NCBI RefSeq assembly: GCF_000002075.1
Contig: NW_004798738.1
Coordinates: 1-64,000 of the forward strand
Direction: 5' to 3'
Origin: Aplysia californica
Taxonomy: Eukaryota
DNA: 64,000 nucleotides
Shown piece by piece: positions 2,486-39,694 of this stretch. Position numbers and translations under genes: made by a program. The notes beneath the pieces were generated by a model. It ran no database searches. It was not told the DNA's origin and was given only the letters and a program-made list of their open reading frames with translations. Position 1 is the stretch's first letter, and every line of letters starts with the position of its first letter.

Positions 2486-3550
2486 TCAAGATAACGTTTC
2501 TTCTAAATTACCAATATCTTTTATAGCTGGCATAATCCGAACAGAGAACTCACTTACGTCTTCCATGTCTGCTCCCATGTGGGTATAGCCAAAATCATCT
2601 ATCAGCTTATAGTCCCCAATCATGAATTGCCGATAAGTTCGAAAAAATTCATTTTGGTATACACATAGCCCGTGGGATTCAATAGGCTTAACTGCAACCC
2701 AAAAAGGAGTCTCCTTTCGCTCGCTATTTAAGCGATGCAGGATCAATAAATCTAAGTCTTTTTTTATTCCTGTATAACTGAACATTTGCCTAGGTAGTCG
2801 AAGCGCCTGCAGTCCGCACTTACGACCAATCCACTTTCGTAAAGATAGCGCTTGGGGAGTTGGTGAATCCAATATCTCCGAGGGGGCAATTAAAAGCGCT
2901 AGACCGCCAGGCTTTAAGAGGCTAATACTCTTGGCTACCGCATAGAAATGAAGCGGCCAATCGTAGCCATCAAACTCTGGGTCGAAGAGGGAAACGGGGT
3001 GACGAGGGACGTGATCGATGACTAGTTCAAATTCAGGCTTAAACCGTAAGTCCTCCATACCTTGGTTTAACACTGTCGCCTGTGGGTAAAGAATCTTGGC
3101 GATTTTACAGTTAATCGGATCTGGATCAACCAAAGTCCATTCCGTGCTCAGGCTATTCCCTTGAGTCCCAGTAAATATGCCAATACCGGCAGAAGGGCTA
3201 ATGGCTTTACCCATATGGGCATACCCTAGCTCTTCAGCTATCATCCACATTGCCTGAGCGATCGTTAACGGGGTGAAGTACCCCGTAAACCCAAACATAT
3301 CTACCGATGCCTTCAAAAGGCTATAGTCTTGGCCTAGGCACTGCTTAATTGCATTGCAGTTATAGAGATCTCGTTCTCCTGGGTATTTGAATAAAAACTT
3401 TAATATGCCGGTACCGGCATATTTAGCTAGGGTATCTAGATCGCTAAGTTGCCACTGAGCTGGTGGTTTATGGATTAAGGACAAGGCTGCAATACTAGAA
3501 TTAATCTGCTCTTGAAGGTTATAGGCTAGCGGCTTTGAATATGAATACAT
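2486..3550 (-). CDS. N6-adenine DNA methyltransferase-like protein (DarB-type MTase domain, degenerate motif IV)
   Basis: YFTP..IA..MW; motif I SPSAGIGIF; DHVPR at the NPPF/NVPF position; LLKPGGLALLI; LRLP..MF. Confidence 0.65.
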   Translation of the reverse strand: MYSYSKPLAYNLQEQINSSIAALSLIHKPPAQWQLSDLDTLAKYAGTGILKFLFKYPGERDLYNCNAIKQCLGQDYSLLKASVDMFGFTGYFTPLTIAQAMWMIAEELGYAHMGKAISPSAGIGIFTGTQGNSLSTEWTLVDPDPINCKIAKILYPQATVLNQGMEDLRFKPEFELVIDHVPRHPVSLFDPEFDGYDWPLHFYAVAKSISLLKPGGLALLIAPSEILDSPTPQALSLRKWIGRKCGLQALRLPRQMFSYTGIKKDLDLLILHRLNSERKETPFWVAVKPIESHGLCVYQNEFFRTYRQFMIGDYKLIDDFGYTHMGADMEDVSEFSVRIMPAIKDIGNLEETLS

Positions 3551-4290: not shown

Positions 4291-4672
4291 GAGGCAGAGG
4301 AGTAGATGCGATCTAAGCCTGGGGTAGAGAAGCCTCTCGGGCAGATTTATCTGCCGTGGTAGTATAGACGTATTCTTCGACTTACTTAGACCTCCAGTAG
4401 TTCTAGAGGGAAGTCCTCTAGGTAAAGGGCTAAACGTACCGCAAGAAGGTAGTCTCGACAGTTTAATCGGATCATCATAAATCACTAGGGGTAGAATCCA
4501 GGGTTTAATTATCTGTCAGACCTGAAGAAAGAAAACCGATTCTGGTTGTTTGGAGCAATCCAACTAGGCAGGGTGTTGTCTAGGGTGCGAGTAGACGTAA
4601 GACAAGACTTGTTCTTGCAATCTACGCCAGTAGTGCCAAATCCTCCAGGCTAAAGCTTGGGGAGTGCATCAA
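4291..4672 (+). mobile_element. Non-autonomous IS200/IS605-family element
   Basis: Left end has the 22-nt motif (4336-4357) shared with the intact tnpB IS. Right-end hairpin ends in TCAA. Excision restores a reading frame. Confidence 0.7.
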
Positions 4673-6963: not shown

Positions 6964-7239
6964 CTAGTCAAAGTCGTAAATTTCTTCTTCATCTGGATAA
7001 CCAAACCCATCGGAGTCTACTGACCAGTTCTCACCGGGTCGCTCGTATTTCAATTGCGTTTCGTCTGGCCAATAAGGGTATCGACTGGGCTTACCATCCG
7101 GCCCCTCCCAATATTGCTCGCCGGTTTTTGGATCCATCCATTTTGGGTAGGGGCAAGGCTTGCCATCCGGGTGCTCTCGGTAAAGGGCGCGATCGCGTTG
7201 GATATCGTCGTTAGCTTCTGTATCGTAAAGTTCATGCAT
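6964..7239 (-). CDS. Hypothetical protein
   Basis: 91 aa with internal HPDGKP/GPDGKP repeat. Confidence 0.45.
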   Translation of the reverse strand: MHELYDTEANDDIQRDRALYREHPDGKPCPYPKWMDPKTGEQYWEGPDGKPSRYPYWPDETQLKYERPGENWSVDSDGFGYPDEEEIYDFD

Positions 7240-7331
7240 AATAGTATTACCTTTAATTTGCGAGTTGAAGGTCTTAAAACTGTTGACAGCAGTTTGAGTT
7301 TCGGGGGTCCTGCTAGACCCCCGATTTGGTT

Positions 7332-7610
7332 TTAGTTTGACGTGCTAGTCAGATGCTGCAAAATGATATCGAGCTTCCCGTTGGCCGTCAAAGTGACTTG
7401 CTCTAAACGGTCAAGCCGACCGTTGACTTCGGTGAAGCTCTGATTAACATGGCTCTCCATGATTTCAAAGGCTTCAGATATCCAGCCTTCCGGTAAAACA
7501 ATATTATTGAAAGAATTTAGCGCAACCTTGAGTTCAGATATGGTTAATTCCAGTTGCGCTAGACGCCGGTGAAACGCTAAAGGGCTTGTGGGTTCTTCAG
7601 AGTAAGTCAT
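7332..7610 (-). CDS. Small coiled-coil protein
   Basis: 92 aa; KLDIILQHL C-terminus. Confidence 0.5.
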   Translation of the reverse strand: MTYSEEPTSPLAFHRRLAQLELTISELKVALNSFNNIVLPEGWISEAFEIMESHVNQSFTEVNGRLDRLEQVTLTANGKLDIILQHLTSTSN

Positions 7611-7734
7611 GTTTTACAGTGGTGTTTACCCTCCTATTATATTAAATCTAATTTAATTATACAAATATATTTGCTTAACCAAACAACAGCAGTAATACTG
7701 GGTTAGAATTGGCAAAACAATCAATCCAGGTAAA

Positions 7735-7983
7735 GTGAAAACAAAAACAAAAACAGTATCACTAAATTTTGGCGAATGGTTTCATGTACAGCGCAAGCGG
7801 GCGGGCATCAGCCAGACCGCGATCGCCCAGGCTTTGGGGGTAACGCAGCAATCCGTTGGCAACTGGGAAAACAATCGTTCTCTGCCTCATCTCAGCCCAG
7901 TAGGGATGGCCTGTTTGTGTGAGCTGCTAAAGGTTGACCTCTCAGAACTTGCGGCAATGGCTAGGGATTGGCAGATTAAGTGA
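7735..7983 (+). CDS. XRE/Cro-family HTH transcriptional regulator
   Basis: RKRAGISQTAIAQALGVTQQSVGNWENNRSLP. Confidence 0.85.
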   Translation: MKTKTKTVSLNFGEWFHVQRKRAGISQTAIAQALGVTQQSVGNWENNRSLPHLSPVGMACLCELLKVDLSELAAMARDWQIK

Positions 7984-7997
7984 TAGGATTGATCGAG

Positions 7998-8172
7998 TAG
8001 CCAAACACAGCGTTCTGGCATTAGTACTTCAATATTTTCAAACTAAGATTTTGGAAGCGTCAAGTTTCCACTTCGGCGGTCCACAGTCGGAGTCAGCCCA
8101 AAACCCACAAGGGACACGGGAAGGTGATGCGGTAATGCCCACCATGCGAGGGGAAAGCGATAGCGACTCCTC
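7998..8172 (+). ncRNA. Putative tracrRNA/scaffold RNA, copy B (upstream of the CRISPR array)
   Basis: Shares identical blocks of 27, 14, 12 and 13 nt with 17345-17519(-); the stems between them show compensatory changes. Confidence 0.75.
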
Positions 8173-8783
8173 AACAACACGCAGGCCAATGCAAGCACCA
8201 TTGCTTGCGCTCACTGAAAGGCAGTTCACGTCCTCGATTCGCACCTTGTCAATTTGATAGCAAGTTTTATCTATCTGAAGTGATTTATTGTTCAGGTAAT
8301 GCTTGCGTTTTGTCCGCAAGACTCTTGAGGAGGCAAGGTTCTAAGAAACGCCGTGATTTGAGGCTTATAGGCTGAAGTGTTGATGAACAATTTAGAATTA
8401 TTTACGAATGGGAATTGAAAGATGGTGTGATTTGAGGCTTATAGGCTGAAGTGTTGATGAACATTTTGTTTTAAAACACAGACGATATCCAGATGCAAGT
8501 GATTTGAGGCTTATAGGCTGAAGTGTTGATGAACATTGATGTTATGGAAGAGAAGGTAGATTCTATTCGACTTAAAAAGCCTGGTGAGTGATTTGAGGCT
8601 TATAAGCTGAAGTGTCGATGGACAGGAAGGATATGATTATAAAAATGGGCTTAATTACGTGATTTGAGACTTATAGGCTGAAGTATTGATGGACTAGATA
8701 TTCAAGAGTGGCAAGATAACCTCCCATCATGTGATCTGAAGCTTATAGGCTGAAGTGTTAATGGACTTTCGATAGGTGCAACT

Positions 8784-9242
8784 TTGACATCCTCTCCCTG
8801 CAACCCTAACGGGTATGCACAGAGATTCCTTGGATCGCTCCAAAGATTTCCTGCTGATCTCAGGTCGCCTCTTAACTAGACATCAAATGCAAACGACACC
8901 CTAAAATGTCTCTTCTCCATCCCCGTCAGCTCGACTTCACAGGCATTTTTGAACTGGGTTGCTCATCCCAGTCATGTCCTGCCCGGACGCTATACGTGTG
9001 TTTCGCAACTATTCCCTTAAAGTTTTACATCAACAGGGATTGGTGTTGAAAACCCCATACTTTAACTATTGAGTTGGTTAGGTTCAGATCAAGGCCCACA
9101 TTACTGGCTACCAAGATGTTTATATTTTATCGCAAAGGAGAATAAAACACTGCATTATTGTTCCCTGCGGTCACGCTCCGCTACACCCCCAGCCAAGCTT
9201 TCAGCTATGGGCTGAAGTATTGGGAAGTTTTTCCGATAGCGA
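8784..9242 (-). mobile_element. Non-autonomous IS200/IS605-like insertion in spacer 6
   Basis: TTGACATCCTC...GATTCC reverse right end and a subterminal hairpin near 9185-9225. Removal leaves a ~42-nt spacer. Left boundary inferred. Confidence 0.65.
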
Positions 9243-9864
9243 GTCAATACTTCCGTGAAGGCTTAAAGTGATTTGAAGCTTACCGGCTGAAGTGTCACTG
9301 GACTAGTTGGTTACCCGATAACTCACATACTCCAGTCGGATGTGATTTGAAGCCTATAAGGTGAAGTGTTGATGGACAAGCCAATCACTAAATTGAGATG
9401 CATCAAGCTTGATATGATTTGAAGCTTATAGGCTGAAGGGTTGATGGACTATTAAGCTATGTTTTTGTACAGGCAAGATGATTATGACTTGAGGCTTATA
9501 GGCTAAAGTGTTGATGAACTTACTCCGTGGCGGCGATTTTTAATTCGAATGCAAAGGTAATTTGAGACTTACAGTTTGAAGTATTAATGGACTAGCGGAT
9601 TTCCGCGAAACGCCTTTTTAACAACTGTCTTTTGAGACTGATTAGCTAAAGTGTGGATGGACTGAGATGCAGCTATATTTATCGTGGGCTAAGGGTTGTG
9701 TTTTAAAGCTTACAGGCTGAAGTGTTGACGGACTTTAGGGAAGCTTCCTGTTTGATTGTGGCTCTGCTATAATCTGAGGCTTACAAGCTGAAGTGTTGAT
9801 GGACTCTTGATTACTCAGTCCGCTAAACAAGAGGACGCTAGTGATTTGAGGCTTATAAGCTGAA

Positions 9865-10266
9865 CAAATCGGCGGCAGTCCCCAGCCCTCTGCAGGGTGG
9901 GGAAGGATAGCCCGTGACCGCAGGGAACAATTCTGCGGTAGAATAAAAGCGAGAGTGACACAAACAAACACCTCGTAATCGTTGGACGACAACCCTCAGA
10001 TCCTTGCGGTCTGTTGCTCTTGTCTAACCCAAAACTGACGGATAATAACGATACTGTCCGGCGCATGACGTCGTTAGCCTTCCTTCCAAAGCGCATTCTG
10101 CTTAATATTTGGGGCCAGGAACTGGCCTCGTTAGACGTGGAGTCGCCAACCTCTACTAGCTGATGTTGCTTGCAACAAGCCAGCAAAGCAAGTTGGGGCG
10201 TGGAAGCGTCGAAAGCCTTAAGCTGAGCAGGACGAAACTTCGTCCTCTTAGGGCGAGGTAGTTCAT
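9865..10266 (+). mobile_element. Non-autonomous IS200/IS605-like insertion splitting repeat 15
   Basis: Repeat halves GTGATTTGAGGCTTATAAGCTGAA and GGGTTGATGGAC flank a 402-bp insert with terminal hairpins ending GGTAGTTCAT; no target duplication. Confidence 0.75.
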
Positions 10267-10414
10267 GGGTTGATGGACGAATAGCTCGTGTGATTTAAAG
10301 CTTGCAGCTTAAAGTGTTGATGGACAATTGTGCTTCAGCTTGAGAAAGATGTTGTTGGACGCTCGAACTTCAATCAAATAAAATATTATTCACATCCTGT
10401 TTGAGTTGACGGGA

Positions 10415-10455
10415 CGAAGGGGCGAATCTGTGGTGGCTCGCCCCTTCGCTCTTTT
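10415..10455 (+). terminator. Intrinsic terminator between the array and the convergent VWA gene
   Basis: CGAAGGGGCGA...TCGCCCCTTCG 11-bp stem followed by CTCTTTT. Confidence 0.65.
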
Positions 10456-10460
10456 GTGCT

Positions 10461-11990
10461 TCAAACAGCAATAAATAATTCAGGCAGCTGATCAAACTGA
10501 CCTGATTCCATAGCCTTGTGGCTGATCGGCCAACACAGGCTTGCTAATGAATCAAGGCTTGATTCGCTTTCATCTCCCAGTGTGATCAGAAATAGATTAA
10601 CTTGGGCGTCAATCAAGAACTGCTCATACTTGCTTTTGAACTTACTACCTACAACACATACGCCATCAGTGATAAAAACAATATCAGCTTTACTATAGGG
10701 CTTGGGGCTAGAGCGAATCAGCTTTCTTGCTTTATTCAGTGGGGCCATAAAGCAAGTGCCATCCCCCCTAGATTCACTGACTAATTGCTGGATCCATTGT
10801 TGATACATGCTAGCTGAGAGTTTTTGGGGATCCAGGGTAATCGGTTGATGAGCCTCTTCGTCAAAAGGAATAATAGCAACTATTCTATTTTCGTCAAAGC
10901 ATAGGCAGGTCAAAGCGACAGTCAACGCCTTGGCCCACTCTTCTTCAATCCCATCACCCATCCTCATGGAGGCTGAAATATCCAAGCAGATAACTAGAGG
11001 TCCTTTACCAATAGGATCCGTGGATTCCAGCTCGTATTCTAAAAGCTGACCTTCCATCAAAGAACGATAGAAGTTGAGCTTGCGAACGGGGTGGCTTAAC
11101 TGAGCTAACTCTTGGGGTAAGACCTGCTGAAGATCATTACCTAAGGTTATCCCCACTAGCTGACCATGGCCTTCTAGAGGCTGCTGCCTGCGCTTCTGCC
11201 AAGCCACTTCTAGAGCGTGACCCGCCATCTTGAGGATTTGACGTAGCTGAGGTTCACTCTGAAGCAAGTTAGCAATCTCTAGCTGTTGGCCAATGGGGAC
11301 AGGGGCAAAATCTTGAGAACCCTTACCACAGCCCAGTAAATTCATAGCTGCTGTTGTTTGCTCTATGGACTGCTCCGCTGCTGCTACCCCTAGTTCAATC
11401 ACTTCCGTGATTTTCCCCGACTGGTCAGCGATCGCCTCTTGTAATTTAGCGGCAGCCTTAACTTGTTCCTTGCCTTGCTTTGAGATTTGATCAAAGGTCT
11501 GTTTGTCGTTTTGCAGTGCGGCCTCATGAGCCGCCTCTCGCAATGGCTGTAGGTCTTCAATTGGGTGGGCTTCAGATTCTGGATCCTTCTTTTTAAGCTG
11601 CTCTAGGGTTGTACCCAATTGCACAACTAATGTTTCCGTGGCCAGGGCTGCGCCTAGGTAGTCTCCATTGCAGCGGTTGACTAGCTTGTGAAAGCTAGGT
11701 TCTCCAGTCAGCTTTTGATGCAGCTCTACTGCCCAACCATGTTCTGGTTTTGGCTCTAGCCACTCGGGTTCAGGGTCGTAATAAAGGCGATGATAGACCT
11801 CTTGGGCAAAATTCTGGATTGTCCGCACAGTGCAATCTCTGAGCCTAATATCCATATAGTGATTATGGCGAATATAGTCTTGCCAGAAAACCCGAGAGAT
11901 TGCACTTGTCCTTAAGGTGATATCGTTAGTTTTTTCAGGCAGGGTAGTAATTGCAGTCGTATCAATTGCGGTTAAATCAACAGGCATCAA
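10461..11990 (-). CDS. VWA (MIDAS) domain protein, ViaA-like
   Basis: GPLVICLDISASM (DxSxS), GDGTCF, ADIVFITDG. Confidence 0.85.
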   Translation of the reverse strand: MMPVDLTAIDTTAITTLPEKTNDITLRTSAISRVFWQDYIRHNHYMDIRLRDCTVRTIQNFAQEVYHRLYYDPEPEWLEPKPEHGWAVELHQKLTGEPSFHKLVNRCNGDYLGAALATETLVVQLGTTLEQLKKKDPESEAHPIEDLQPLREAAHEAALQNDKQTFDQISKQGKEQVKAAAKLQEAIADQSGKITEVIELGVAAAEQSIEQTTAAMNLLGCGKGSQDFAPVPIGQQLEIANLLQSEPQLRQILKMAGHALEVAWQKRRQQPLEGHGQLVGITLGNDLQQVLPQELAQLSHPVRKLNFYRSLMEGQLLEYELESTDPIGKGPLVICLDISASMRMGDGIEEEWAKALTVALTCLCFDENRIVAIIPFDEEAHQPITLDPQKLSASMYQQWIQQLVSESRGDGTCFMAPLNKARKLIRSSPKPYSKADIVFITDGVCVVGSKFKSKYEQFLIDAQVNLFLITLGDESESSLDSLASLCWPISHKAMESGQFDQLPELFIAV

Positions 11991-13231
11991 TACAATTCCT
12001 CCACTAGGTCTTCTAGCTGGTCAATATAGCCAGTCACCTTTTCACTAAATTCAGCTTGCAACTGGGCTCCATTCTGCTCACACTCAATGGAGAACTTATT
12101 GGCCTTGTCGATCAAATTCTGCAAGTGAGTACGAACATTATCTGCAGCTTGCAGGCAGACGTCAGCAGGAATATTTTGATTCTCGCATTTCTGCTTAAAC
12201 TCAGTAAACTCATTGATTGCAGCTAGATGCAGGTTATCAAGTTGAGTCTTGCATAGGGGGGCAGTATCTACCAGAATCTTTTTAATTTCCTCGATTTCCT
12301 CAGGCTGCTTCCGCCAGCAGCATTGGGGCAATAGCTCATGAAGATGTTCGGTATAGACACAAGTACAGTCTTTAACGTAGGCAAAAGCTTTGAGTAGATG
12401 AATGATTTTAAGTCGACGTCGGGTACTGACTCGGATCCCATTCGCCTCTATTCGCATAAAGCTGGCAGTCAATAGCGCAAGCAGCGCTGGATGAACCGTA
12501 ACTTCAGCAGCCGCTATGGACATCTGCTCTAGCTGGGCTAGGGTAATAAATTCTTGATCCACGGGTGGTCGGGTATTGTCGACGGCCCACTTAAGCGAGG
12601 TTTTAATCGACTTAATTTTAGTCAAGTCACTGACATAAGGCCGATAGATAAAACGATCCGTAAAGGCTTCCAGGTCTTCACTGGTATTGATTTCATTAGT
12701 CGCCCCCACTAACGACTTGAGGCAGCTATGGGTTTTATCAGGATTGTCATAGGTACGCTCTTCCATTAACTCCAGGAGGCTATTATTAAGCACGCCATTG
12801 CCCCGAAATACTTCATCGAGAAACGCGATATGGGCATCCTGGATACGTCCAGTGACATTTCGTCTAAGCACGTCTTGCTCTAGGCTCTTCAGGCTAATCG
12901 GCCCTAGCACTTCATCTGGAGCCATGGCTTTATTTAGTAGCCGATGGAAAAACTTCATGTCCGTAAACGCTTCGCAAATCTCACGAATTAACAGGCTTTT
13001 AGCTACCCCTGGGGGGCCATATAGCAAGGCATTCTGTTGGACTAGTAACGTAGCGAGTAAGCCATCAATGATTTTGTCTCGCTCTAGATGGGACTGATTG
13101 AGTTGCTGCCGTAAGTGCTGCAATAAGGCATGGGGAGATTTAGCTGTTTTAGTTTTAGTAGCAGCTTTAGTAGTAGCTTTAGATCTACCGGCTTTAGATG
13201 ATTGAGTTGAACGGGTTTGAGTAGTTGGCAT
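11987..13231 (-). CDS. MoxR-family AAA+ ATPase, RavA-like
   Basis: Walker A GPPGVAKS; Walker B AFLDEVF; LNNSLLELMEER; GATNE; AFTDRF. Confidence 0.88.
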   Translation of the reverse strand: MPTTQTRSTQSSKAGRSKATTKAATKTKTAKSPHALLQHLRQQLNQSHLERDKIIDGLLATLLVQQNALLYGPPGVAKSLLIREICEAFTDMKFFHRLLNKAMAPDEVLGPISLKSLEQDVLRRNVTGRIQDAHIAFLDEVFRGNGVLNNSLLELMEERTYDNPDKTHSCLKSLVGATNEINTSEDLEAFTDRFIYRPYVSDLTKIKSIKTSLKWAVDNTRPPVDQEFITLAQLEQMSIAAAEVTVHPALLALLTASFMRIEANGIRVSTRRRLKIIHLLKAFAYVKDCTCVYTEHLHELLPQCCWRKQPEEIEEIKKILVDTAPLCKTQLDNLHLAAINEFTEFKQKCENQNIPADVCLQAADNVRTHLQNLIDKANKFSIECEQNGAQLQAEFSEKVTGYIDQLEDLVEELY

Positions 13232-13296
13232 AGGTAGAGTTTAAGTAGATAAAAGTGCAAATAAATTAGAGGGAGATTAGGAGAACTCAGGTGAAA

Positions 13297-14718
13297 TTAA
13301 AAACCAGCGATCGGGTCCGCGCCACCCATCGCTTTCACTTCGTCAAGGTGTTTCTCTAAAGCAGTATTTGCTTTTTTAGTGAGCTGTTTAATGTTGTTCA
13401 TTCGTCGCCTTAGGGTTGATTCTATGTTGGCCACTCGCCCTGCCTCAATACGTTGCAATGCTGCGGCATTGGGCGAGGCAATTAGCTGCTCCAGCTCTTG
13501 GGTTAACTTCTTGTAATCAGAGGCAAAGTTTAGAGACTGACTCAGCTTGGCAGCCCCTTCACCCGCTTTGTTTTCACCGACGCTATCCTTGACGGCTTGG
13601 TCAATCACAATGATGAAATTCTCATACATTTGCTGCATTCGGATCGGATCTGGATTCGAGTCAATAAAGCTAAGGAGTTCTTGGGACTCAGTGAGCAGGG
13701 GCTTGAGCTTGGGATTGTACTCCTGTAAGACTTCCAGTCGCTGGAATATCTTGTCGATACTATTGCGATCCTGTTGGGTAATCTTGGGTCCAAGGCTAAA
13801 TCGATCCACGAGGCTGGCGATTAGCTCCCAGCCCTGATCCAAAGACACCTCCACTGACTGATTAACCGCATGCACTAAGCCATTGAGCATCAATTTGTTT
13901 GTGGCAATCTTGGTCTCTAAAGCCTTGGCCTCTTCTTCTTCTTCTAAGGTGAGTCGCTGCTTTTGGGCCAGCTGGTGCTGTAGCTCTGCATCTTCAAGCA
14001 GCTTATCCTTAAGGGAGGTAATCTGCATGGGACCATCCACAATAATTTGCAGTGAATTCGCAAAGTCTTCAATACTGGGATACTCATAAGCGTAAAAGGC
14101 CAAAGCCTTGCGCACCTCCCTGCGATTGCCCGCCATTGTCTGCATAAATTTCTCCTCCAATTCCAGCAAGAACGTGGCGAGGTCTTCCTCATAACTGTCC
14201 ACTAGCTGCTGCCGATAACCAGCGGCCTCTGCCTTGACTGCCTCTGCCGCTTCAATAGCCGCTTGGATCTGGCTGCCTTCAACGAACCGGAACGGTTTGA
14301 CATAGATCGTATAACGATTGAAGAAGTTAGACTGAGCGTTAGAAAGCTTGTTCCGAAAGTTACTGAGGTTGTAAGAGAAGGGCTTGCGATAACCGCCCCT
14401 CAAGGCTTCCACCGCCTCTTCTGTCATCCCTAAGTCCTCTGCCTCAATGCAAATCGACATGGAGATAGTGCTGTGAACCTCCAAGGAAAGCCGATATAAG
14501 TCCTTGTCCGCAAGATGCTCCCAGATATCATGGACCGTTAAATCACTGCTGAAAGGGATTTTGTCCTGGGCCGCTCGGATAGAAGTATTATCGTGAATTT
14601 TACTAGCGACTAAGGAGTCAACCGTACTGTGGGTACTGGTTTTGAAGGGATCAATAAAGACAGGTTGATTGGGAGTTTGATTTTGAACTTGATTTTGAAC
14701 TTGAGTCATAGATTTCAC
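13297..14718 (-). CDS. Helical/coiled-coil protein leading the AAA-VWA operon (possibly DUF3150-like)
   Basis: 473 aa; family inferred from operon context only. Confidence 0.5.
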   Translation of the reverse strand: MKSMTQVQNQVQNQTPNQPVFIDPFKTSTHSTVDSLVASKIHDNTSIRAAQDKIPFSSDLTVHDIWEHLADKDLYRLSLEVHSTISMSICIEAEDLGMTEEAVEALRGGYRKPFSYNLSNFRNKLSNAQSNFFNRYTIYVKPFRFVEGSQIQAAIEAAEAVKAEAAGYRQQLVDSYEEDLATFLLELEEKFMQTMAGNRREVRKALAFYAYEYPSIEDFANSLQIIVDGPMQITSLKDKLLEDAELQHQLAQKQRLTLEEEEEAKALETKIATNKLMLNGLVHAVNQSVEVSLDQGWELIASLVDRFSLGPKITQQDRNSIDKIFQRLEVLQEYNPKLKPLLTESQELLSFIDSNPDPIRMQQMYENFIIVIDQAVKDSVGENKAGEGAAKLSQSLNFASDYKKLTQELEQLIASPNAAALQRIEAGRVANIESTLRRRMNNIKQLTKKANTALEKHLDEVKAMGGADPIAGF

Positions 14719-14927
14719 ACCTACTTACAATAACAATACAACATTAAATCTATAGGGATTTAATAATAAACAGAAGGCGCTAGTAGGCTAAAGCCTTTAA
14801 TGTAAAGTACTTTCTAAAGACTGGCCTCTCCCAGGCATGTTTTCCGCTACGATAGAATAACAGGCTTGAATAACAGGCTCACAAGCCAAGACATCATCAA
14901 GACATCAATAGCTGTAAAGGAGACGCC

Positions 14928-15605
14928 ATGAAAAAGTTCAAGCTACTAAAGCCTTTCCAGACAATGAGTCTAGAGGAGCTGGAGGGCTACGTAGACAAGC
15001 GCTATAACGACCGCATTACAGAGATGGTTTACCAAGGGTATGCGTACAAGATGATTCGGGATCGTCGCTTGTACGAGGATTTGTTTGATGACTTCGCCAC
15101 ATACATTAGGGAGCGTATTGGCTTACTACCTCAACAAGCCCACCGAAAGATTCGGGCTGCAAATGTCCTTTTGATCCTGAATGAGCATTATTCCTATCTG
15201 CCTGAGTCTCAGAACCTCTGCCGTCACCTGATGCGCCTCTCGCCTAAACACATCGTTACCGTGTGGGGCGTCACCCTTGAGCACTGGCACGACCCAGACA
15301 GCCCTTGCAATAAGTTCCCCCCCAAGAATGGCCGTAGACATAAAAACTCCCCAACGCCCCAAATGATCAAAGATGCGATGGCGGAACTGAACGTCACAGT
15401 TATGAACCCTGTACGTAGGGAGGTAGAGGATTTTGAGGAGTACCTCGAAGAAGAAAAGGCATGGAAGAAGAAAGTAGAACAGGCAGAAGAACGTTCTGAG
15501 AAAGAGCTTTTGCAGGAGGCTTTAAGAAAAGAGGCAGTAAAAGAAAGAGCGAGGCAGAGGGCAATGCTCAAACGAGAACAAGCACAAAAATCCCCGGTGG
15601 TTTAA
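14928..15605 (+). CDS. Hypothetical DNA-binding protein
   Basis: GGAG RBS; IRDRRLY...F..Y...AHRKIRAA...LPES pattern typical of mobile-element proteins. Confidence 0.55.
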   Translation: MKKFKLLKPFQTMSLEELEGYVDKRYNDRITEMVYQGYAYKMIRDRRLYEDLFDDFATYIRERIGLLPQQAHRKIRAANVLLILNEHYSYLPESQNLCRHLMRLSPKHIVTVWGVTLEHWHDPDSPCNKFPPKNGRRHKNSPTPQMIKDAMAELNVTVMNPVRREVEDFEEYLEEEKAWKKKVEQAEERSEKELLQEALRKEAVKERARQRAMLKREQAQKSPVV

Positions 15606-15622
15606 GCCACCGGGGCAAAAAT
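15587..15622. terminator. Hairpin terminator
   Basis: CCCCGGTGG-TTTAAG-CCACCGGGG with an A-tract on the left, i.e. a U-tract for minus-strand transcripts. Confidence 0.55.
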
Positions 15623-15922
15623 TGCTCATCCGATCTTCTATGCATTTCCTACTCTTGATTCATTGTTCCCGAGTAGGAAAGGTATTTTCCTGGAATAATA
15701 TCTTTCCGTTAATTCTTTAAATCCAACAAGAGTTCAAGCACTTTAGCCGAAGCGCAGCGAAGGCAAAAACCGAAAGCAGTAACTCTTTTCGGCCAGGATG
15801 CCATCTCCAATTTCCAGCAGTTTATGCTAGCCGCCCAGCGTTTGCCTGTCCATTTTTCCCTGGGATTGCAGTCGCAATAGGTTAGGTACGTCCCAACTTG
15901 AAGGTATTCACCAATCTTTCCA

Positions 15923-16291
15923 TTGACTACTCCCCTGGCTGAAGCCTAGGGGATTCCCCTGCTTCGCTTAGGGATTTCGAGCACTTCTTGCTGAAACTTC
16001 TGTCACTTTCCAACAGGACGCTTAGGGACCGTCAATCGTCCCTCTAGACTGTCCGACCTTGCAGTCATCCAGCTTACTTTTGTTGTCTCGTTGCTGAAAT
16101 TGAATCTCTCGCTGATGGAACAACTTTGCTACCGACAGGTATGTTTGTCCTCACGGGATGTTAAGCCCCAACCAATCAGGTCTTTGAGTCTTGCAACTAC
16201 CTTAATTTTACCACGGCAGATAAATCTGCCCGAGTCGCTTTTCCACCCCGGACTGAAGTCACGGGGCTACCAAGCTACCGAGTGTTCTCCC
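15923..16291 (-). mobile_element. Non-autonomous IS200/IS605-family element
   Basis: Reverse right end TTGACTACTCCCCTGG...GGGGATTCC. Left end shares ACGGCAGATAAATCTGCCCGAG (16213-16234) and terminal CTCCC with the tnpB IS. Confidence 0.72.
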
Positions 16292-16962
16292 GTGTATTTC
16301 CCCCAGCCTTAAGACAACCATTCATCTCTTTCCAACTAAGTTTCTAACGTAATTGCTTGGAGATCTCCAACTATTTTCTTGCAAACTCAAGAGCATCGGT
16401 TCATTCACATGTCCAGGCAAACAGTACCTTGTAGTTTTCGAACAAATATTTTAATGCGGTTATTGTCCAGTTCTTTCAATTCATATTTCAACTCGTCCAA
16501 ATGCTCTAATAACTTATCCACTCTTTCCTGCTTGCTGTACCACTGTCAACTTATCCAGCTTGGGCAAGAAATCTAATTTCATCAAGATATTTTCCAGGGT
16601 ATTTTCTCAGACTTTCCAACATGTACCAATACCTTCATGCCCAATAATCAAAAGTATTCGCCTGCATATATCCAAGTGTCCGGCACCACGAACTTCCAGT
16701 TCAAGAATTTGTCACCTAGTAGTCTTCCTTCTTGTCTTGCTGCCTATCCTACTGCTTGCCCTTGACTTTCTTCCTGTCCTGCTTCAAGTTAATCCAGCTA
16801 GAACTGCCGCTTTTTGTTGTTGTCTATGGCTCGGCCCCATGTCCAAATACTGCCTGTCTTTACCCTGAATTTTTCCTACTTACAAAAAATCAATCTGCAT
16901 GTGTCCGCTTATCGGAAAAACTTTGTAGCGTCCCAAGGAGCATGGAAATAAGATATCTTGCC

Positions 16963-16998
16963 GTCCATTAACAATTCAGCCCGCAAAACTCAAACATC
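16963..16998 (-). repeat. Lone degenerate copy of the CRISPR repeat downstream of the Cas12-like gene
   Basis: GTCCATTAACAATTCAGCCCGCAAAACTCAAACATC matches the reverse complement of the consensus at 26/36 positions. Confidence 0.65.
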
Positions 16999-17344
16999 TC
17001 CCGCTTCTTCATCTCCCGCCTCTTTCAGATCACATACAACATCCAGCCGTCCATCAATAGAACATCCAGCCGTCCATACCTTGATTTTGTGCTGGCATGC
17101 ATGTATCCACTTAAAGTTTCTGCTTGTCCTGCTGTTACCCTAGACATTCTCCCTGTCCTGCTTTACGCTAATCCATCCTAGGGGTGTGCAAAAGCCTTTG
17201 CTTAAAAAATATCCAAGCTTGCCATGCCCAAGTTTTCTCACGTCAATTGACTCATCAATTGTTCAGCAAGGTATTTGCCATGTCCAGGGGTGCGCGAAAG
17301 CCTTTGCCTAGCTCTTTAATTGCCAAGGTACGTGGAACATAAGC

Positions 17345-17519
17345 CAGGGAATCGTTATTACTTTTCCCCTGCATGATAGACATTACTGGCTATCTTCCCG
17401 TGTCCCCGAAGGGTTTTGGGCTAATACGCCTGACTGTGGACCGCCAGACGGAGACATAGTCTCAAAGGTTTTATCTGAAAAATATTGGAACGCTAATGCC
17501 AGAACGCTGTGTTTGGCTA
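17345..17519 (-). ncRNA. Putative tracrRNA/scaffold RNA, copy A (20 nt after the effector stop codon)
   Basis: Homologous to 7998-8172; contains a CCC-UUCG-GGG hairpin and covarying stems. Confidence 0.75.
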
Positions 17520-17539
17520 ACTGAATGGTATCACAATTT

Positions 17540-19441
17540 TTAAATCTTTAAATCAATCTTTCGTTCCTTCACTGGCTTACGTTTACGACGCTGAAACTTC
17601 TTAGGAGTGTGGGCTGGATTAACTAGCCCATCTAACTGCACTGGCTTAATCTCAGGTGACTGCTCTATGGGGGGAACATCAAAGCTAGAAGCTTCTAGTA
17701 TCTCCCGAGGGGTAGCCTCGGGCTTAACAGACACTGTTTCAACCACCCGATCCGCCCCTCGATCCACAGCCTTCTGCTTAATCAACGAGACGAATTGGCC
17801 TAGGGCAATAGTTCGAATCTGTTCATTCAGTAACCGCTGCTCCTCTCGACCGTTTGGAGAATAACCCTCTCCATCTTTTTTGGGGATAGGCAGGGGACGA
17901 CCTAAAGCAGCCTTGGGATCGAATGTTTTAATCGCGATATATTGATTCGCATCTACAAACCAGGAGCTGTAATAGTGATGGTAGTTCCGTTTGCAGCGAG
18001 ACTGACGCCGTTCAATGGCGACAATTTTAGTATTGATGCGCTTCCAGTTTTCAGAGCCAAGCTTCATATTAGACTGGACTCTTCTAAGGGCATTAATTCG
18101 CTCTTTGAAATGATCCAGTTGAGGATGTTTGATGCGAATTCCATTGGTAGTATCGGCCAAATAGTTAAACCCTAGATCGATGCCAATGGGTGTTGGTCGA
18201 GGATTGCCAGGACTAACCAGTACCCGCAAGGTGAGCTGGAGGAAAAACTTTTGGCCTCGACGAAGGATGTGAAACGAACCAGGCAGGCAGAGTTCAGGGA
18301 TGATCAGATCTATAGCTCGCTTCTCAGCTAAAGCCTGCAGCTTAGATATAGCCACCTGCTTGCTCTTGTGCTGAGAGCACCAGGCATCTACCTTTTTCAC
18401 AACCTGCTTTAAGAATCCCTTGGGGTCTTCAGGCATCTGCTGATCCGTTTGCAGCCAGCGGATTACGTTCAAAAGAGTTTGGCGCTCCTCTAGCTTCTCA
18501 TTCAGCTCTGGGTAGTCCTCTGGATGGGTGCGCATATGCTGCTCTTGTCGGGCCATCAGTTTACCCAGGCGATCGCTGAGCTTAGGGATATATTGCCAGC
18601 TCAGTCCAGGCAACTTGACTTGATCGTTCTCTAGGTCTAATTTGCACTGACCTCGAAAGGACTGGCTAGGGATGGTATTCACATGATCGCCGCGACTCTT
18701 GTAGCGCGGTCGACGAATCTCCTTACGCTTTGGGTCTAAATAATTCTCCCAGGACTTAGCCAAAACAATAGCAATATAGTCATTGATGTAGACCAGGGGA
18801 ATCGTCGCGTCCTCTAACAACTCCCAGCGCTTCTTCGCAAAAGGCTTGCGCAGATCAGTCACACCATAGGAATCAATCAAGGGATCCGTAAGCCAGTGAG
18901 ATTTGACTAGACAGCAGGCGGGGCGCAATTCAATATTGTCGACATCCCAAGACTTGCGTCGGTCAATCCGCTGCTCAATAGCCAGATCACAATACATCGC
19001 CCACTCGCCATCTGAGGCTTTAGTCACCTGTAGTGCGACTGGTGTATTGTATGTGAGTTCGTGGTGAGGAACCTGGGAATCAAAGAACCCCCATCGGTCT
19101 AGGACATCAGGGTCTGCAGGGGTACCAATCGCCCAATGCTTGGGTGCGGGCACCCGCTTATTAGATTTAGCCTCTGGTTCAGCTGGCTCCTCCGGCACAG
19201 AAGGCCGAGAGAATAAGACCTGAGGCAGCTCTAACTTAGGTGGTGGATTCAAGAACCCCCAGGCAGATAAGATGTCTGGATTTACGGGGGCCTCTTGGAT
19301 TTTCTGTAAGCGATTGGAATACTGACGCCATTCCAGTAGCGCTAAGCCTCTGTTATAGACTTGCTTGAGTATCTCCATCCAGCTGATAACCTCAGCCTTC
19401 TCTCTTGGAGAAAGCAGTAGTGGGAATTCAATTGTCTTCAT
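17540..19441 (-). CDS. TnpB-derived type V (Cas12-like, possibly C2c8/V-U2-related) effector, predicted nuclease-dead
   Basis: TnpB-like N-terminus (MKTIEF...VYNRGL); RRPRYK; RuvC-I IGIDLG; GSENWKR; RuvC-II IAIK instead of IAIE; GYSPNG...LN..I...ALGQF...IKQKA; no CxxC finger or DRD-NAA; two large insertions. Confidence 0.75.
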   Translation of the reverse strand: MKTIEFPLLLSPREKAEVISWMEILKQVYNRGLALLEWRQYSNRLQKIQEAPVNPDILSAWGFLNPPPKLELPQVLFSRPSVPEEPAEPEAKSNKRVPAPKHWAIGTPADPDVLDRWGFFDSQVPHHELTYNTPVALQVTKASDGEWAMYCDLAIEQRIDRRKSWDVDNIELRPACCLVKSHWLTDPLIDSYGVTDLRKPFAKKRWELLEDATIPLVYINDYIAIVLAKSWENYLDPKRKEIRRPRYKSRGDHVNTIPSQSFRGQCKLDLENDQVKLPGLSWQYIPKLSDRLGKLMARQEQHMRTHPEDYPELNEKLEERQTLLNVIRWLQTDQQMPEDPKGFLKQVVKKVDAWCSQHKSKQVAISKLQALAEKRAIDLIIPELCLPGSFHILRRGQKFFLQLTLRVLVSPGNPRPTPIGIDLGFNYLADTTNGIRIKHPQLDHFKERINALRRVQSNMKLGSENWKRINTKIVAIERRQSRCKRNYHHYYSSWFVDANQYIAIKTFDPKAALGRPLPIPKKDGEGYSPNGREEQRLLNEQIRTIALGQFVSLIKQKAVDRGADRVVETVSVKPEATPREILEASSFDVPPIEQSPEIKPVQLDGLVNPAHTPKKFQRRKRKPVKERKIDLKI

Positions 19442-19533
19442 GCGCCCCCAGTGTTTGAATAAATACTTTGAACATAAGGTGATATTACGGCACTATTGCG
19501 TTAGCTATCAAAAAAAATAAAGGAGCAAAAATT

Positions 19534-19785
19534 TTGACGAATAAAGCCTATTTCTTTGCGGACAAACGCACAGGCCAGGTGCGTCGCACTCCTATATACG
19601 CCAGCACTGCTAGTGCTGCTAAGCAAAAGCTGCATCGTCCCCCCGCCGACCAGGCCAGGGTGGCTAAAGTTCGCGCGGTCAAAGCTGCAGAACATCGAGC
19701 TGCGAAGGGAGGACGATGGGTTAGCTCTCGCGTAGCAACAGACTTCAATCAGTCTAGGGGGTTTGGTCCCAAGCCAGGAAGTTGA
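19534..19785 (+). CDS. Small basic hypothetical protein divergent from the effector
   Basis: AAGGAG RBS before TTG; 83 aa. Confidence 0.45.
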   Translation: MTNKAYFFADKRTGQVRRTPIYASTASAAKQKLHRPPADQARVAKVRAVKAAEHRAAKGGRWVSSRVATDFNQSRGFGPKPGS

Positions 19786-19824
19786 ATCCTGCTCCCAGTC
19801 AAAGTTTCAATGGCCTTGGTCGCC

Positions 19825-21090
19825 TTGATCCACTCCCCCGACTAAAGTACGGGGGATTCGGGACTCAAGCAGCGATTGCCGTCAGAGACGGTCTAACATC
19901 GCCTACTCCCAGAGACAGAGATCCTGCCTCTTTAATGTTGTTCGCTGCGTTACCATCACGGTCATTGACCGTCTGACAACTAGGACAGCGCCAACGCCGC
20001 ACATCTAAGGGCAACGACTCCAGTACATGCTTGCAATGGTTACAAGTCTTGCTCGACGGATACCACTGGTCTACATAACCCACAGTCTTGCCCTTTTTGC
20101 AGGCAACAAACGCTAAAATTTGCAGGAATTCACGGAAGGCTAGATCGCTGACTTTACGACCCCATAGCCGCTGCATTCCCTTTAAGTTAAGCGTCTCAAA
20201 AAATAAGTGGTCATACTGGTCTGTAAGCTGATGAGCCAGCTTCCAAAACCAGTCTGTTCGCCTGTTCTTGATGGCTTCATAAGCCCGAGCTAAATGCTTT
20301 CTAGCTCGTTCACGCCCCTTAGAACCCTTCTGCTTTTTAGAAAGGTGGCGATGGGCTAGCGCGATCTGATTAATTCCTTGCTTTAGAAACAAAGGACTCT
20401 TGATCTCAGAACCACCCGATATCGTCAGGAAAGTCTTTAATCCAAAATCAAACCCTGCGCTTTTACCTGTCATGGGTTGTTGATGTTCGTCTACGTGATC
20501 TGTGACGACGAAGATAAATATCTCGCCTAGTGGATTACGTTTGACGGTGATGGTTTTGACGTTTCCTTGGATCTCGCGACTGTTCCAGTATCGATAGATC
20601 TGCTGGCCAATCTTGATCCGACCTTTGCCAAGCAACTTATAGCTTGACTGCTTGAGGGTGAAGGATTTGTATTTGATTCGCTTCTTAAACCCAGGTGGCT
20701 TAGTGCCTCGACTATGGTACTTGAAGAACAACTGGTAGGCTCGCTCTATGCGCTGGCAGATATCCTGCATCGATTGAGAACCTACCAATTGCCAGTACGC
20801 TGAGGTCTTGCGCTTCTTGGCAATGTGCTTTTGCAGGTTGGAACAGCTTAAGTGCTGGCCATAGAGCCGATAATATCGCTTGTGCAAAGCAATACAGTGA
20901 TTCCATATGCTAGAGGCAGCATTAATCGACTGATGAAGCTTCTTACAGCGCTTATGGTTATATAGCTTGAACTTAAACGTTTTCACTTTTATACTTTATC
21001 GCGAATTAAAAGACGGCAGATAAATCTGCCCGAGTCCTTTTCATCCCTGCTCTAAAGAGACAGGGCTTTCAAGTTCCCGTATGCTCTCCC
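19825..21090 (-). mobile_element. IS1341-type (IS200/IS605 family) element, tnpB only
   Basis: Right-end hairpin ends TCAA at 19825; left-end hairpins 21013-21070; preceded by TTTAC; interrupts ORF 21052-21336. Confidence 0.8.
19865..20986 (-). CDS. tnpB: RNA-guided endonuclease TnpB (intact D-E-D and Zn finger)
   Basis: GFDFGLK, FFETLN, CNHC...CPSC, DRDGNAANNI. Confidence 0.93.
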   Translation of the reverse strand: MKTFKFKLYNHKRCKKLHQSINAASSIWNHCIALHKRYYRLYGQHLSCSNLQKHIAKKRKTSAYWQLVGSQSMQDICQRIERAYQLFFKYHSRGTKPPGFKKRIKYKSFTLKQSSYKLLGKGRIKIGQQIYRYWNSREIQGNVKTITVKRNPLGEIFIFVVTDHVDEHQQPMTGKSAGFDFGLKTFLTISGGSEIKSPLFLKQGINQIALAHRHLSKKQKGSKGRERARKHLARAYEAIKNRRTDWFWKLAHQLTDQYDHLFFETLNLKGMQRLWGRKVSDLAFREFLQILAFVACKKGKTVGYVDQWYPSSKTCNHCKHVLESLPLDVRRWRCPSCQTVNDRDGNAANNIKEAGSLSLGVGDVRPSLTAIAA

Positions 21091-26332: not shown

Positions 26333-27319
26333 TTAAACTGCAGCCCCAGCCTTGAGCAACTTATCAATCAGCTGAGCCTTGAATGGTGTACGAGGCAACG
26401 TATCAATCTGTTTTTCCAGTAGCTCTAAGCCCGAGACAGGTAGCTGTCCAGGTACTTGCCCAGAGCTTAGGAGGTTTTCAGCAATGGGCTGGTCATGGTA
26501 CTGATGGATTAACCTTAGGTTTTTAGGGTCAGCTCGTCCTTCCCCTAGGCTGCCAATGGGAAAAGCTAGGAACTCTTCCGCTAGATCCCGATTAGGCTTA
26601 GCAGAAATGCTATACGCAAACCCCTCCCTAGGTCCAAGGCCATAGTAGCCTTTCATATGGCCCTGGTCTTGGGTTATACGTGCATACAACGGATCAACTC
26701 GCAACTCTTGATTAGCGGTAGGATTACCATAGAACTGGCTAGGGGTTTGACGAGAGCTCGTATTAAACCCACGGACGCCGCCTCGGGTCATGTACAGCTG
26801 CCATTTATCCTCAGGGTTATCAGCAATCCGTTTGCTTAGAGCATCATGGACATCTCCCAGGTGCTGAATCTGTACTGAGTCTTGCATCTTGTGGGCGACA
26901 TCAGGCCAGTCCCAGTCTGCCATCGGAGTTTTAGCGAAAGAAACATACTCAATCGGTCGCTTACCCCGTGCTGATTCAATCTTGTAAACAACTTCTGGAT
27001 CTGGATAGCTCAGGTACTGACCCGTCTGTTTGTAATTTTGGTTATAGGTATCCATTAATTGCTGAGCGTCCTCAGCCGTTAGCTTTGAGTTACGCAAATA
27101 GAAATCAATTCGATCTCCTTGGCCAAATTTTGGATCGATAGTGCCGCGATCGCGGTGTTCCATTTGCGAGCTAGATGCGTAGGGTACCGACTCATCCGTA
27201 ATGGTCACCTGTTTTACCTGGGCTTTTGGTAGCCCCTTAGGAATCTGTTGCTGCTTTTTCTGCAGGGGAACTGGCTTGGGTCGAGCAAATCGTTTAAGCA
27301 TGATTAAAGTTCGGTACAT
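26333..27319 (-). CDS. Hypothetical protein, possibly virion-associated
   Basis: 328 aa; N-terminal KQQQIPKGLP resembles KQIPPGLP of 42445-44796. Confidence 0.55.
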   Translation of the reverse strand: MYRTLIMLKRFARPKPVPLQKKQQQIPKGLPKAQVKQVTITDESVPYASSSQMEHRDRGTIDPKFGQGDRIDFYLRNSKLTAEDAQQLMDTYNQNYKQTGQYLSYPDPEVVYKIESARGKRPIEYVSFAKTPMADWDWPDVAHKMQDSVQIQHLGDVHDALSKRIADNPEDKWQLYMTRGGVRGFNTSSRQTPSQFYGNPTANQELRVDPLYARITQDQGHMKGYYGLGPREGFAYSISAKPNRDLAEEFLAFPIGSLGEGRADPKNLRLIHQYHDQPIAENLLSSGQVPGQLPVSGLELLEKQIDTLPRTPFKAQLIDKLLKAGAAV

Positions 27320-30300: not shown

Positions 30301-30981
30301 GGTCACCTGTTTTACCTGGGCTTTTGGTAGCCCCTTAGGAATCTGTTGCTGCTTTTTCTGCAGGGGAACTGGCTTGGGTCGAGCAAATCGTTTAAGCATG
30401 ATTAAAGTTCGGTACATTGAGATTTGGCAGAAGAATCAAAACACTAGGGTTTAACTTGCCAACCCTTCTTGCGAGCCAGGGCTTGAGCCCGACGCTTCAT
30501 TGCTGAGGAAGTCTGCTGAGCCTTCATACTCTTTTGAGCCTTGCGCTCATTGATGCGAGCCTGGGCTGCTGCCGCCTGCTTCTTCATCGCTTCCACCTTT
30601 TCTGGGGTAATGTCAGCCCGAGCCTTGCTCACCTTGTCGCGATAATCTTGAATTGACTTATCCCTTTGCTGGCCTAGGGTCTGTTGACGCTGCTGGTATC
30701 GCTGCTCCCCTCGCTGATTAACGTCAGCAACAACATCCTCTGATAGACCTGGACGGTTGGAAATCACCCCCTCATTAGAAGGCATGCCCATGTTGGCAGC
30801 CTCTTCAATCGTTTTGTTATAGGCATCTTGAGCATGACGGCCTTCAAGGATGACCGCATCTAGCCCGTCCGAGAGCGCGTAGTACGCCTGCTTGCTCGCT
30901 GGAGTTGACCCTTTGAACTCTGGCTCCTGGTCCCACCTGGGCTCGGGCACGGAGGACCAGTCCTGAGAGCGATCCACGGAG
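26692..30981. repeat. ~1.19-kb direct duplication (26692-27883 and 29790-30981)
   Basis: Near-identical copies offset by 3098 bp, each ending at an N-gap. Confidence 0.85.
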
Positions 30982-39531: not shown

Positions 39532-39621
39532 AATGTAATTAGTTAGTTAGTTAATAGATTAGTTAGTTAAAGCGCTAGCGCTTTAACTAACTAATCTATT
39601 AACTAACTAACTAATTACATT
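39532..39621. repeat. 90-bp perfect palindrome
   Basis: 45-nt arms with no spacer; centre AGCGCT|AGCGCT. Confidence 0.95.
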
Positions 39622-39634
39622 CCAAACAAAAGAA

Positions 39635-39694
39635 GTTAATTAATTAGTAAGAGGAACCGAAGCGAGCTTCGGTTCCTCTTACTAATTAATTAAC
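39635..39694. repeat. 60-bp palindrome (29-nt arms, 2-nt loop)
   Basis: GTTAATTAATTAGTAAGAGGAACCGAAGC-GA-GCTTCGGTTCCTCTTACTAATTAATTAAC. Confidence 0.95.

Follow-up and report, generated by a model that had tools for sequence, protein, structure and literature searches.

The window analyzed here comprises the initial 64 kb of a contig of 84,324 bases in the 927-Mb Aplysia californica assembly (NW_004798738.1, positions 1 to 64,000, forward strand). It encodes a 633-amino-acid effector protein that, judged from its sequence, is a nuclease-dead offshoot of the type V-U2/C2c8 lineage related to Cas12p. The gene lies on what appears to be a temperate-looking bacteriophage and is accompanied by two copies of a scaffold RNA resembling a trans-activating CRISPR RNA (tracrRNA). 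Copy B lies behind the effector gene, and copy A lies 9 kb away on the opposite strand, ahead of a CRISPR array. On balance, we lean towards the effector being a nuclease-dead RNA-guided DNA binder that uses scaffold and CRISPR RNA (crRNA) against rival elements. The combination of features and the history traced below are, as far as we have seen, new, and every ingredient has a precedent.

Effector protein and its clade

The effector gene (17540–19441, minus strand; protein P0001) is an intact open reading frame (ORF). A sequence-only reading of the window had described its product as a 633-residue TnpB-family protein of a nuclease-dead type V CRISPR-like system; the TnpB-family RuvC region, the type V lineage and a broken catalytic triad are borne out. 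The RuvC region matches the TnpB family (PF01385, E 2e-4), and the best-scoring family is C2c8 (V-U2, NF038192; E 2e-37, 129.2 bits, below the cut-off of 350), which is also matched by 29/29 aligned relatives. A profile search with the effector returned 103 cluster representatives at E 1e-30 or better. The effector directly shows D422 as the only remaining triad residue: K505 occupies the RuvC-II position, and the zinc finger and the RuvC-III motif are missing, as they are in 27 of the 29 aligned relatives. Among these 27 zinc-finger-less members of alignment A3, the RuvC-I aspartate (D422) is retained in 13 and lost in 14, and the full triad is present in none (0/27). The protein shares 53% amino-acid identity with the Acaryochloris homolog L013 while only 37/104 four-fold sites are identical, which indicates that the gene is under constraint. 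Two relatives, L033 and L014, carry broken effector genes.

A FastTree phylogeny was built from 83 sequences, namely the proteins of at least 400 amino acids among P0001–P0089 minus fragments, plus five locus translations, with one TnpB outgroup. The effector falls in a clade of 29 members (support 1.0) that lacks the zinc finger throughout, has two intact proteins as its sister and appears to nest among zinc-finger-bearing C2c8-like proteins; the sequences were picked by similarity to the effector. The zinc finger is independently gone in a separate C2c8-like branch (P0046, P0049, P0053, P0054, P0076, P0077 and P0081), suggesting repeated inactivation in this lineage.

We give very little credence to the idea that the effector is a nuclease still able to cut or nick through a catalytic site that has been rearranged. 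Such a nuclease would fit the D422 kept by part of the A3 members, the acidic residues conserved in this subgroup at 497, 534, 575, 580 and 583, and the rearranged RuvC sites of TnpB described in PMC10691335. The lysine at RuvC-II, the vanished RuvC-III motif, the absence of any full triad and the loss of the aspartate itself in more than half of these proteins all speak against it, as does the gradual course of the loss, which resembles that described for V-M. The conserved E580 presumably fits a helix-capping pattern and counts on the same side.

The predicted structure of the effector (predicted local distance difference test score 82.9) had Cas12p as its top Foldseek match (E 1.7e-14), and Cas12p was also the top sequence-profile match in the PDB. 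Alignment of the model gave Z 17.1 with a root-mean-square deviation of 6.2 over 403 residues for Cas12p, and Z 18.3 with a deviation of 3.4 over 327 residues for TnpB. The match to Cas12m was weaker (profile E 1.3e-5, Z 12). The profile and structure searches that the sequence-only reading had proposed support kinship to C2c8 and TnpB, with Cas12p as the top fold; its idea of an unplaced system gives way to a V-U2 offshoot.

Cas12p ("Cas12 hacker", PDB 9JFS and 9JG3) is likewise phage-encoded and 500–700 amino acids long. It differs in being an active nuclease that depends on TrxA and has both D378/E478/D582 and a zinc finger, it is 18–19% identical to the effector, and the thioredoxin-binding domain in its REC lobe is not alignable to the effector. 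This kinship bears on another reading, which we hold to be improbable: that the dead effector, instead of being a plain roadblock, recruits a partner (host thioredoxin, as Cas12p does, or the transcription machinery) or serves to decoy the RNAs of rival V-U2 systems. According to the Cas12p report, a REC insertion of that protein binds TrxA (10.1101/2025.01.20.633832); the effector also has a REC insertion, modeled at low confidence, and its C151 is conserved in 24/29 relatives. However, the N-terminal profile aligns to Cas12p residues 1–31 and again from about residue 216, skipping the thioredoxin-binding domain, and the examined loci have no linked gene for a transposase or a sigma factor. 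The insertion private to the effector spans residues ~51–129 (window 19055–19290) and is of low confidence in the model. It holds a pair of D-x-L-x-x-W-G-F motifs, similar to each other and with a weak resemblance to the motif at the C terminus of Microcystis C2c8 (E 0.3–1); the Microcystis motif may be reminiscent of a sliding-clamp-binding motif.

Two copies of a structured scaffold RNA

The structured RNA that had been noticed behind the effector, with a second copy on the opposite strand before the array, was recovered by local search at 7998–8170 (plus strand) and 17348–17519 (minus strand), with 73% identity over 176 nucleotides (nt) and E 4e-20. These 176 nt comprise a 43-nt upstream block and the scaffold proper, and no copies beyond A and B were found in the assembly. 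Scaffold B (17345–17472, minus strand) is a five-stem tracrRNA-like RNA with an anti-repeat loop, located outside coding sequence behind the stop codon of the effector. Its upstream block (17477–17519, minus strand) has only two copies in the contig, and its first 27 nt are identical to 7998–8024. The other copy (7998–8040, plus strand) is joined to scaffold A (8041–8200, plus strand). Scaffold A is the 3' end of the coding sequence of an effector gene of Acaryochloris type and remains in frame, with stems at 8053–8172 and the anti-repeat loop at 8078–8085. The 43-nt block is a putative promoter or processing signal; no match to the sigma-70 consensus was found in 17477–17519, and scans for sigma-70 promoters and terminators remained at chance level.

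Conservation of the structure was assessed on six scaffold copies: the two described here, three coding copies and one free-standing copy on the Acaryochloris marina plasmid pREB1. Across the five stems, 95.2% of cells were paired, and two-sided changes occurred in 13/35 pairs. None of 500 shuffles scored as high as the scaffold pairing (0/500), and slid controls reached at most 51%. Folded alone, copies A and B each give the identical five stems, with z −2.4 for A and −2.5 for B.

In 5/6 copies, stem 2 has a loop containing GUCCA, which is complementary to the TGGAC end of the repeat, a predicted pairing; TGGAC terminates 11/15 full repeats of the array. A loop–repeat pseudoknot is typical of Cas12 tracrRNAs. 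For Cas12p in particular, pairing of a tracrRNA loop with the 3' end of the repeat is described by Wang et al. (10.1101/2025.01.20.633832), and the complementarity seen here resembles it. RNA duplex prediction between repeat and scaffold gave no consistent long anti-repeat. At four-fold sites, the coding tail overlapped by the scaffold is conserved at 11/14 positions versus 63/148 in the gene body (p 0.012).

The RNA model of the scaffold had matches in 4/48 family genomes, and the scaffold motif had none in IMG/VR. Fourteen motif matches in JGI metagenomes were set aside as chance, none being scaffold-like or near a homolog. Relatives of the effector were likewise found neither in IMG/VR nor in JGI metagenomes, and a search of a phylum sample was positive in 1/401 genomes (three candidates scored per genome).

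Inspection by eye of the gene tails of Microcystis C2c8, the cyanophage CL131 and the dead relatives L032 and L034 showed hairpins with 3–5 bases complementary to their own, differing repeat ends. In the canonical V-U2 loci these hairpins seem to lie in or just past the 3' end of the gene (L016:4805–4840, the Microcystis c2c8 tail; L001:8709–8732, the end of CL131 gp061). The scaffold RNA model matched the L034 tail weakly (E 0.064) and left Microcystis C2c8, CL131 and L032 unmatched. The CL131 paper reports V-U2 in this cyanophage, found no tracrRNA and suggests a regulatory role (PMC6293099); the 3'-end hairpin is a candidate for the missing tracrRNA.

Origin of the split layout

From position 8041, copy A shares 92% identity over 137 nt with the 3' coding end of the Acaryochloris homolog L013, with the reading frame retained. 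Behind this tail, L013 and L033 carry a comparable leader and then repeats of the same family (28–29/36 and 24/36, respectively), so the ancestral order was presumably gene, scaffold within the coding tail, leader and array. These two loci also bear out the expectation that RNA and repeat co-occur with effector homologs. The leader of the phage array (8201–8352, plus strand) shares ~72% identity with the sequence that separates gene and array in L013 and L137. The effector P0001 lacks the protein segment encoded by the scaffold, and scaffold B sits behind its stop codon.

The 43 nt preceding copy A are not coding tail, and their first 27 nt, shared with the block before B, are absent elsewhere in the contig. 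Since this block is shared with B and the scaffold is a foreign tail, module A (scaffold A, leader and array) is best described as a chimera of a phage upstream block and an imported scaffold, leader and array. Duplication of copy B was ruled out as the source of copy A, because A is 92% identical to the foreign tail although the silent sites of the two proteins are near saturation. The sequence-only reading had described a split system; its two modules are present, and the layout appears to be derived and private to the phage, a foreign gene tail having been imported without its gene. In L013, L033, L032 and L034 the array is contiguous downstream of the gene (11 and 6 repeats in L032 and L034, respectively), whereas the phage has one degenerate downstream repeat and a distant array. 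The junction between upstream block and imported scaffold may have been selected for.

Public contigs support this arrangement in pieces: all 30 bins of 7000–21000 were covered by contigs from two runs of one sample, the sole joint within these contigs linked the end of the stretch at 21000 to a repeated insertion sequence (IS) end at 16213, and no single piece among those listed spans the whole stretch. In an independent sample, several contigs resemble the scaffold A–leader stretch and none covers the effector gene, which fits a cassette that is common in other elements. A single polyA run yielded three partial reads, which count neither for nor against expression.

On pREB1, a free-standing diverged scaffold (L012:3065–3240, minus strand) with an AUCCA loop is followed by a reversed repeat-like stretch and lies 7 kb from an effector gene on the opposite strand. 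The plasmid thus appears to be a second element with two inverted scaffold copies.

The array and its spacers

The array (8353–10325, plus strand) contains the 16 repeats that had been counted, each of 36 nt, with spacers of mostly 34–38 nt and one repeat split by an insertion. The three leader-side repeats are identical; later ones diverge, and trailer repeats match at 27–28/36. An internally deleted IS200/IS605-type element lies inside spacer 6 (8784–9240), and its ends flank a TnpB ORF in L038; sequence comparison identified a second remnant of this type at 9865–10266, where it splits repeat 15. The array is eroding.

Spacer 4 (8624–8658, plus strand) matches 31/35 nt of a DUF4417-like ORF in genome G005 (E 6e-6). 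The target is a 384-amino-acid ORF with a weak DUF4417 match (E 0.0011, under the cut-off) that adjoins an IrrE-type peptidase gene. Because the four mismatches all sit at the 5' end, the matched ORF is taken as a homolog of the true source, and the protospacer-adjacent motif (PAM) is unreadable. The suggestion that the system silences host defense genes is not borne out: the single match is to a homolog of a DUF4417-like gene, and no cognate target was found. Spacers 7–14 had no significant match across nine genomes of the genus.

The sequence-only reading had also noted the lack of cas1, cas2, cas4, tnsBC and tniQ. None of the Cas1, Cas2, Cas4, TnsB/C and TniQ families was found in the 60 scanned window ORFs (180 listed) or in the 18 ORFs of the remaining 20 kb, and neither Cas1 nor Cas2 was found across the entire assembly. 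Nor was another cas operon sharing the repeat found among 30 Cas1 loci, whose linked 36-nt repeats match at 20–21/36, within background. Cas1 is present in 1/9 genomes of the likely host genus and in 26/48 family genomes; adaptation machinery may be borrowed from the host. The repeat pattern had no match in IMG/VR.

The region behind scaffold B

A single degenerate repeat ending in TGGAC lies behind scaffold B (16963–16998, minus strand), with repeat halves at ~17040–17085. Of 165,831 positions outside the array it gives the best match (the runner-up reaches 23), so the repeat copy claimed downstream of the effector stands as the best background match, at 22–25/36 against single array repeats and not at the 26 first given. 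It sits in a non-coding tract of ~930 nt (16400–17330, minus strand) where TGGA[CT], the pentamer that ends the repeats, occurs 17 times on the same strand as the scaffold, compared with 3.1 expected and a maximum of 9 in 500 shuffles. The tract ranks first of 528 contig windows for this pentamer, and the opposite strand of 15600–17350 has none; region and motif were picked after viewing the data, and TGGAC and TGGAT are within the top six of all pentamers there. The tract has no homolog in 48 family genomes and no 70–75-nt periodicity, and four relatives show no such enrichment behind their scaffolds. Possible explanations are a guide array that has eroded or is minimal, and a series of sites to which a protein binds.

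A bolder and, in our estimate, improbable proposal is that the native array of the phage has shrunk to ~1 kb of minimal guide cassettes that keep only the UGGAC/UGGAU pseudoknot end and are read by the free-standing scaffold. The same dead effector would also load guides from the captured foreign scaffold–array cassette, making a two-scaffold, nearly repeat-less RNA-guided repressor.

Proposed mechanism and the case against it

In the mechanism that we favor, the phage-encoded nuclease-dead V-U2/C2c8 protein would bind the five-stem scaffold. The GUCCA loop would pair with the UGGAC end of the repeat as a pseudoknot, positioning the next spacer as the guide. The complex would then bind PAM-flanked DNA without cutting it and, as a roadblock, obstruct mobile elements that compete with the phage or genes of islands; blocking of rival DNA by binding is likely in this mechanism because the effector has lost the residues for DNA cutting. 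Historically, the scaffold would have shifted to a position past the stop codon while erosion set in on the native array; the phage would later have acquired tail, leader and array from a locus of Acaryochloris type, placed after a second copy of the phage's upstream block, and this cassette would restore the supply of guides. RNA binding, the use of module A guides in trans, repression and the targets are what we infer here; the broken triad, the fold, the conserved RNA structure, the co-occurrence with the repeat family and the origin of copy A are supported directly by the comparisons above.

Several observations weigh against this mechanism. The six sequences on which covariation was scored are related, and the same six served to derive the structure. 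The 35 codons past the scaffold are likewise conserved at four-fold sites (10/14), so this conservation extends beyond the five stems. Of the full repeats, 4/15, including the three newest, end in TGAAC and would mispair with the GUCCA loop. The array is interrupted by two IS remnants. Of its spacers, only 1/15 had a significant match, with the mismatches placed as described; none matched phage or plasmid collections, a part of the proposed host and phage search that came back empty, and within the contig itself spacers and module B guides match at 16/20 nt at most, leaving no sign of self-targeting. Acaryochloris also has gene-less tails and broken genes (L137, a solo copy in L012, and L033), indicating that orphan tails arise by decay.

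These points suit a relic, in which module A is the unused orphan tail of a deleted gene, the module B array has decayed and the effector is limited to one or two native guides or is inactive. The IS remnants, the diverged trailer repeats, the mispairing newest repeats, the broken relatives L033 and L014, and comparable decayed tails in G005 and pREB1 would all be expected. Even so, we consider this reading doubtful, while giving it appreciable weight. The effector ORF is intact and conserved at the protein level, scaffold B retains its five stems through compensatory changes though it lies outside any coding frame, and the junction of the imported tail falls precisely at the 5' edge of the scaffold, with an adjoining block that shares 27 identical nt with the one before B.

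Phage contig and neighboring genes

The claim that the system is phage-borne is well founded. The window encodes a terminase (phrog_38, E 2e-66), a virion structural protein, an N4-gp56-type major head protein and an integrase-family protein, and a muramidase gene lies further along the contig, beyond the window. We regard the contig as a phage co-assembled with the eukaryote. The neighboring TnpB region shares 87% identity with pREB1 over 555 nt, and the closest named homologs of the effector come from Acaryochloris, so the host is probably near this genus and the phage a cyanophage. With the capsid protein as query, no prophage was found in the 48 genomes searched. No Rfam family was found in the window.

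An Xre-family helix-turn-helix gene (7735–7983, plus strand) lies directly upstream of module A. Between the two modules is an operon (10461–14718, minus strand) for an unknown 473-amino-acid protein, a MoxR-type AAA ATPase and a VWA protein. The phage has been heavily visited by IS200/IS605-type elements: two intact TnpB genes are present (window 19865–20986 and contig 82774–83886), and IS-end remnants lie at 4316–4372, ~15920–16260 and 21013–21034. Two DNA methyltransferase-like genes were found, at window 2486–3550 (DarB-like match) and contig 74550–75398 (N6/N4 methylase). Two AT-rich perfect palindromes (arms of 47 and 29 nt) at 39532–39694, near the switch of GC skew and gene direction, are a possible origin or hairpin-end site. 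Tandem near-duplicate ORFs at 26333–31900, with a 300-nt exact repeat and N-runs at 27889–28365 and 30982–31081, are a possible assembly artifact outside the finding; a further N-run lies at 38302–38917.

Discussion

Nothing is overturned by these results, since there are precedents for dead type V binders, for Cas12 proteins of phages and for tracrRNAs encoded in a gene tail. The nearest known system is V-U2/C2c8, represented by gp061 of cyanophage vB_AphaS-CL131 and c2c8 of a Microcystis NIES-2481 plasmid. Both occur on cyanobacterial mobile elements and share with the present locus 36-nt repeats, a downstream array, the lack of adaptation genes and an insertion after RuvC-II. They differ in keeping D, E, zinc finger and D, which the effector clade does not, and in repeat sequence; moreover, the scaffold is evident here and the phage's array lies 9 kb off on the opposite strand.

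According to PMC12669027, binding without cleavage is established for V-C and V-M; RuvC is inactivated in V-O and V-P, for which interference by binding is predicted, and such interference is demonstrated for V-M. V-P as presented there appears distinct from the active Cas12p, and the effector clade may overlap V-O/V-P. Cas12m (V-M) shares the inactivated RuvC and is structurally more distant from the effector (Z ~12) than TnpB and Cas12p are.

TldR uses a single guide RNA and is not known to have an array. It too is a dead TnpB-fold RNA-guided binder that is sometimes phage-encoded; the phage locus and its relatives differ in carrying repeat–spacer arrays, and a separate scaffold is present here. 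The Cas12n (V-N) preprint places the tracrRNA in an unstructured C-terminal coding tail (10.64898/2026.03.27.714800). Acaryochloris relatives of the effector likewise hold the scaffold in the coding tail; in contrast, Cas12n is an active nuclease, and the phage scaffold has left the coding sequence.

Cas12k (V-K) resembles the effector in its dead RuvC, cyanobacterial setting and similar length, and differs structurally (Z ~12 or lower). A CRISPR-associated transposon was rejected, with no tnsB, tnsC or tniQ in 78 scanned ORFs of the 84-kb contig and no Cas12k family match. An ordinary IS200/IS605 TnpB was rejected as well: the effector scores 56.8 bits for guided_TnpB (cut-off 100) and has no intact RuvC or zinc finger, compared with 224.7 bits for the neighboring true TnpB at 19865–20986.

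Among the matches listed in the literature searched, we found no account of a nuclease-dead V-U2 clade or its scaffold, although supplements and subscription papers may hold one, and no experimental study of V-U2, a subtype listed for a long time, was found there. The present analysis defines a nuclease-losing clade, points out the coding tail as the place to look for the scaffold in V-U2 relatives, and provides a test set consisting of a protein, two natural scaffolds and a loop–repeat pairing rule. Two evolutionary steps are caught in one genome, namely the exit of a tracrRNA from coding sequence and the replacement of an eroded array by a foreign cassette. If the effector represses, it would represent another independent, phage-borne origin of RNA-guided repression and a compact dead binder.

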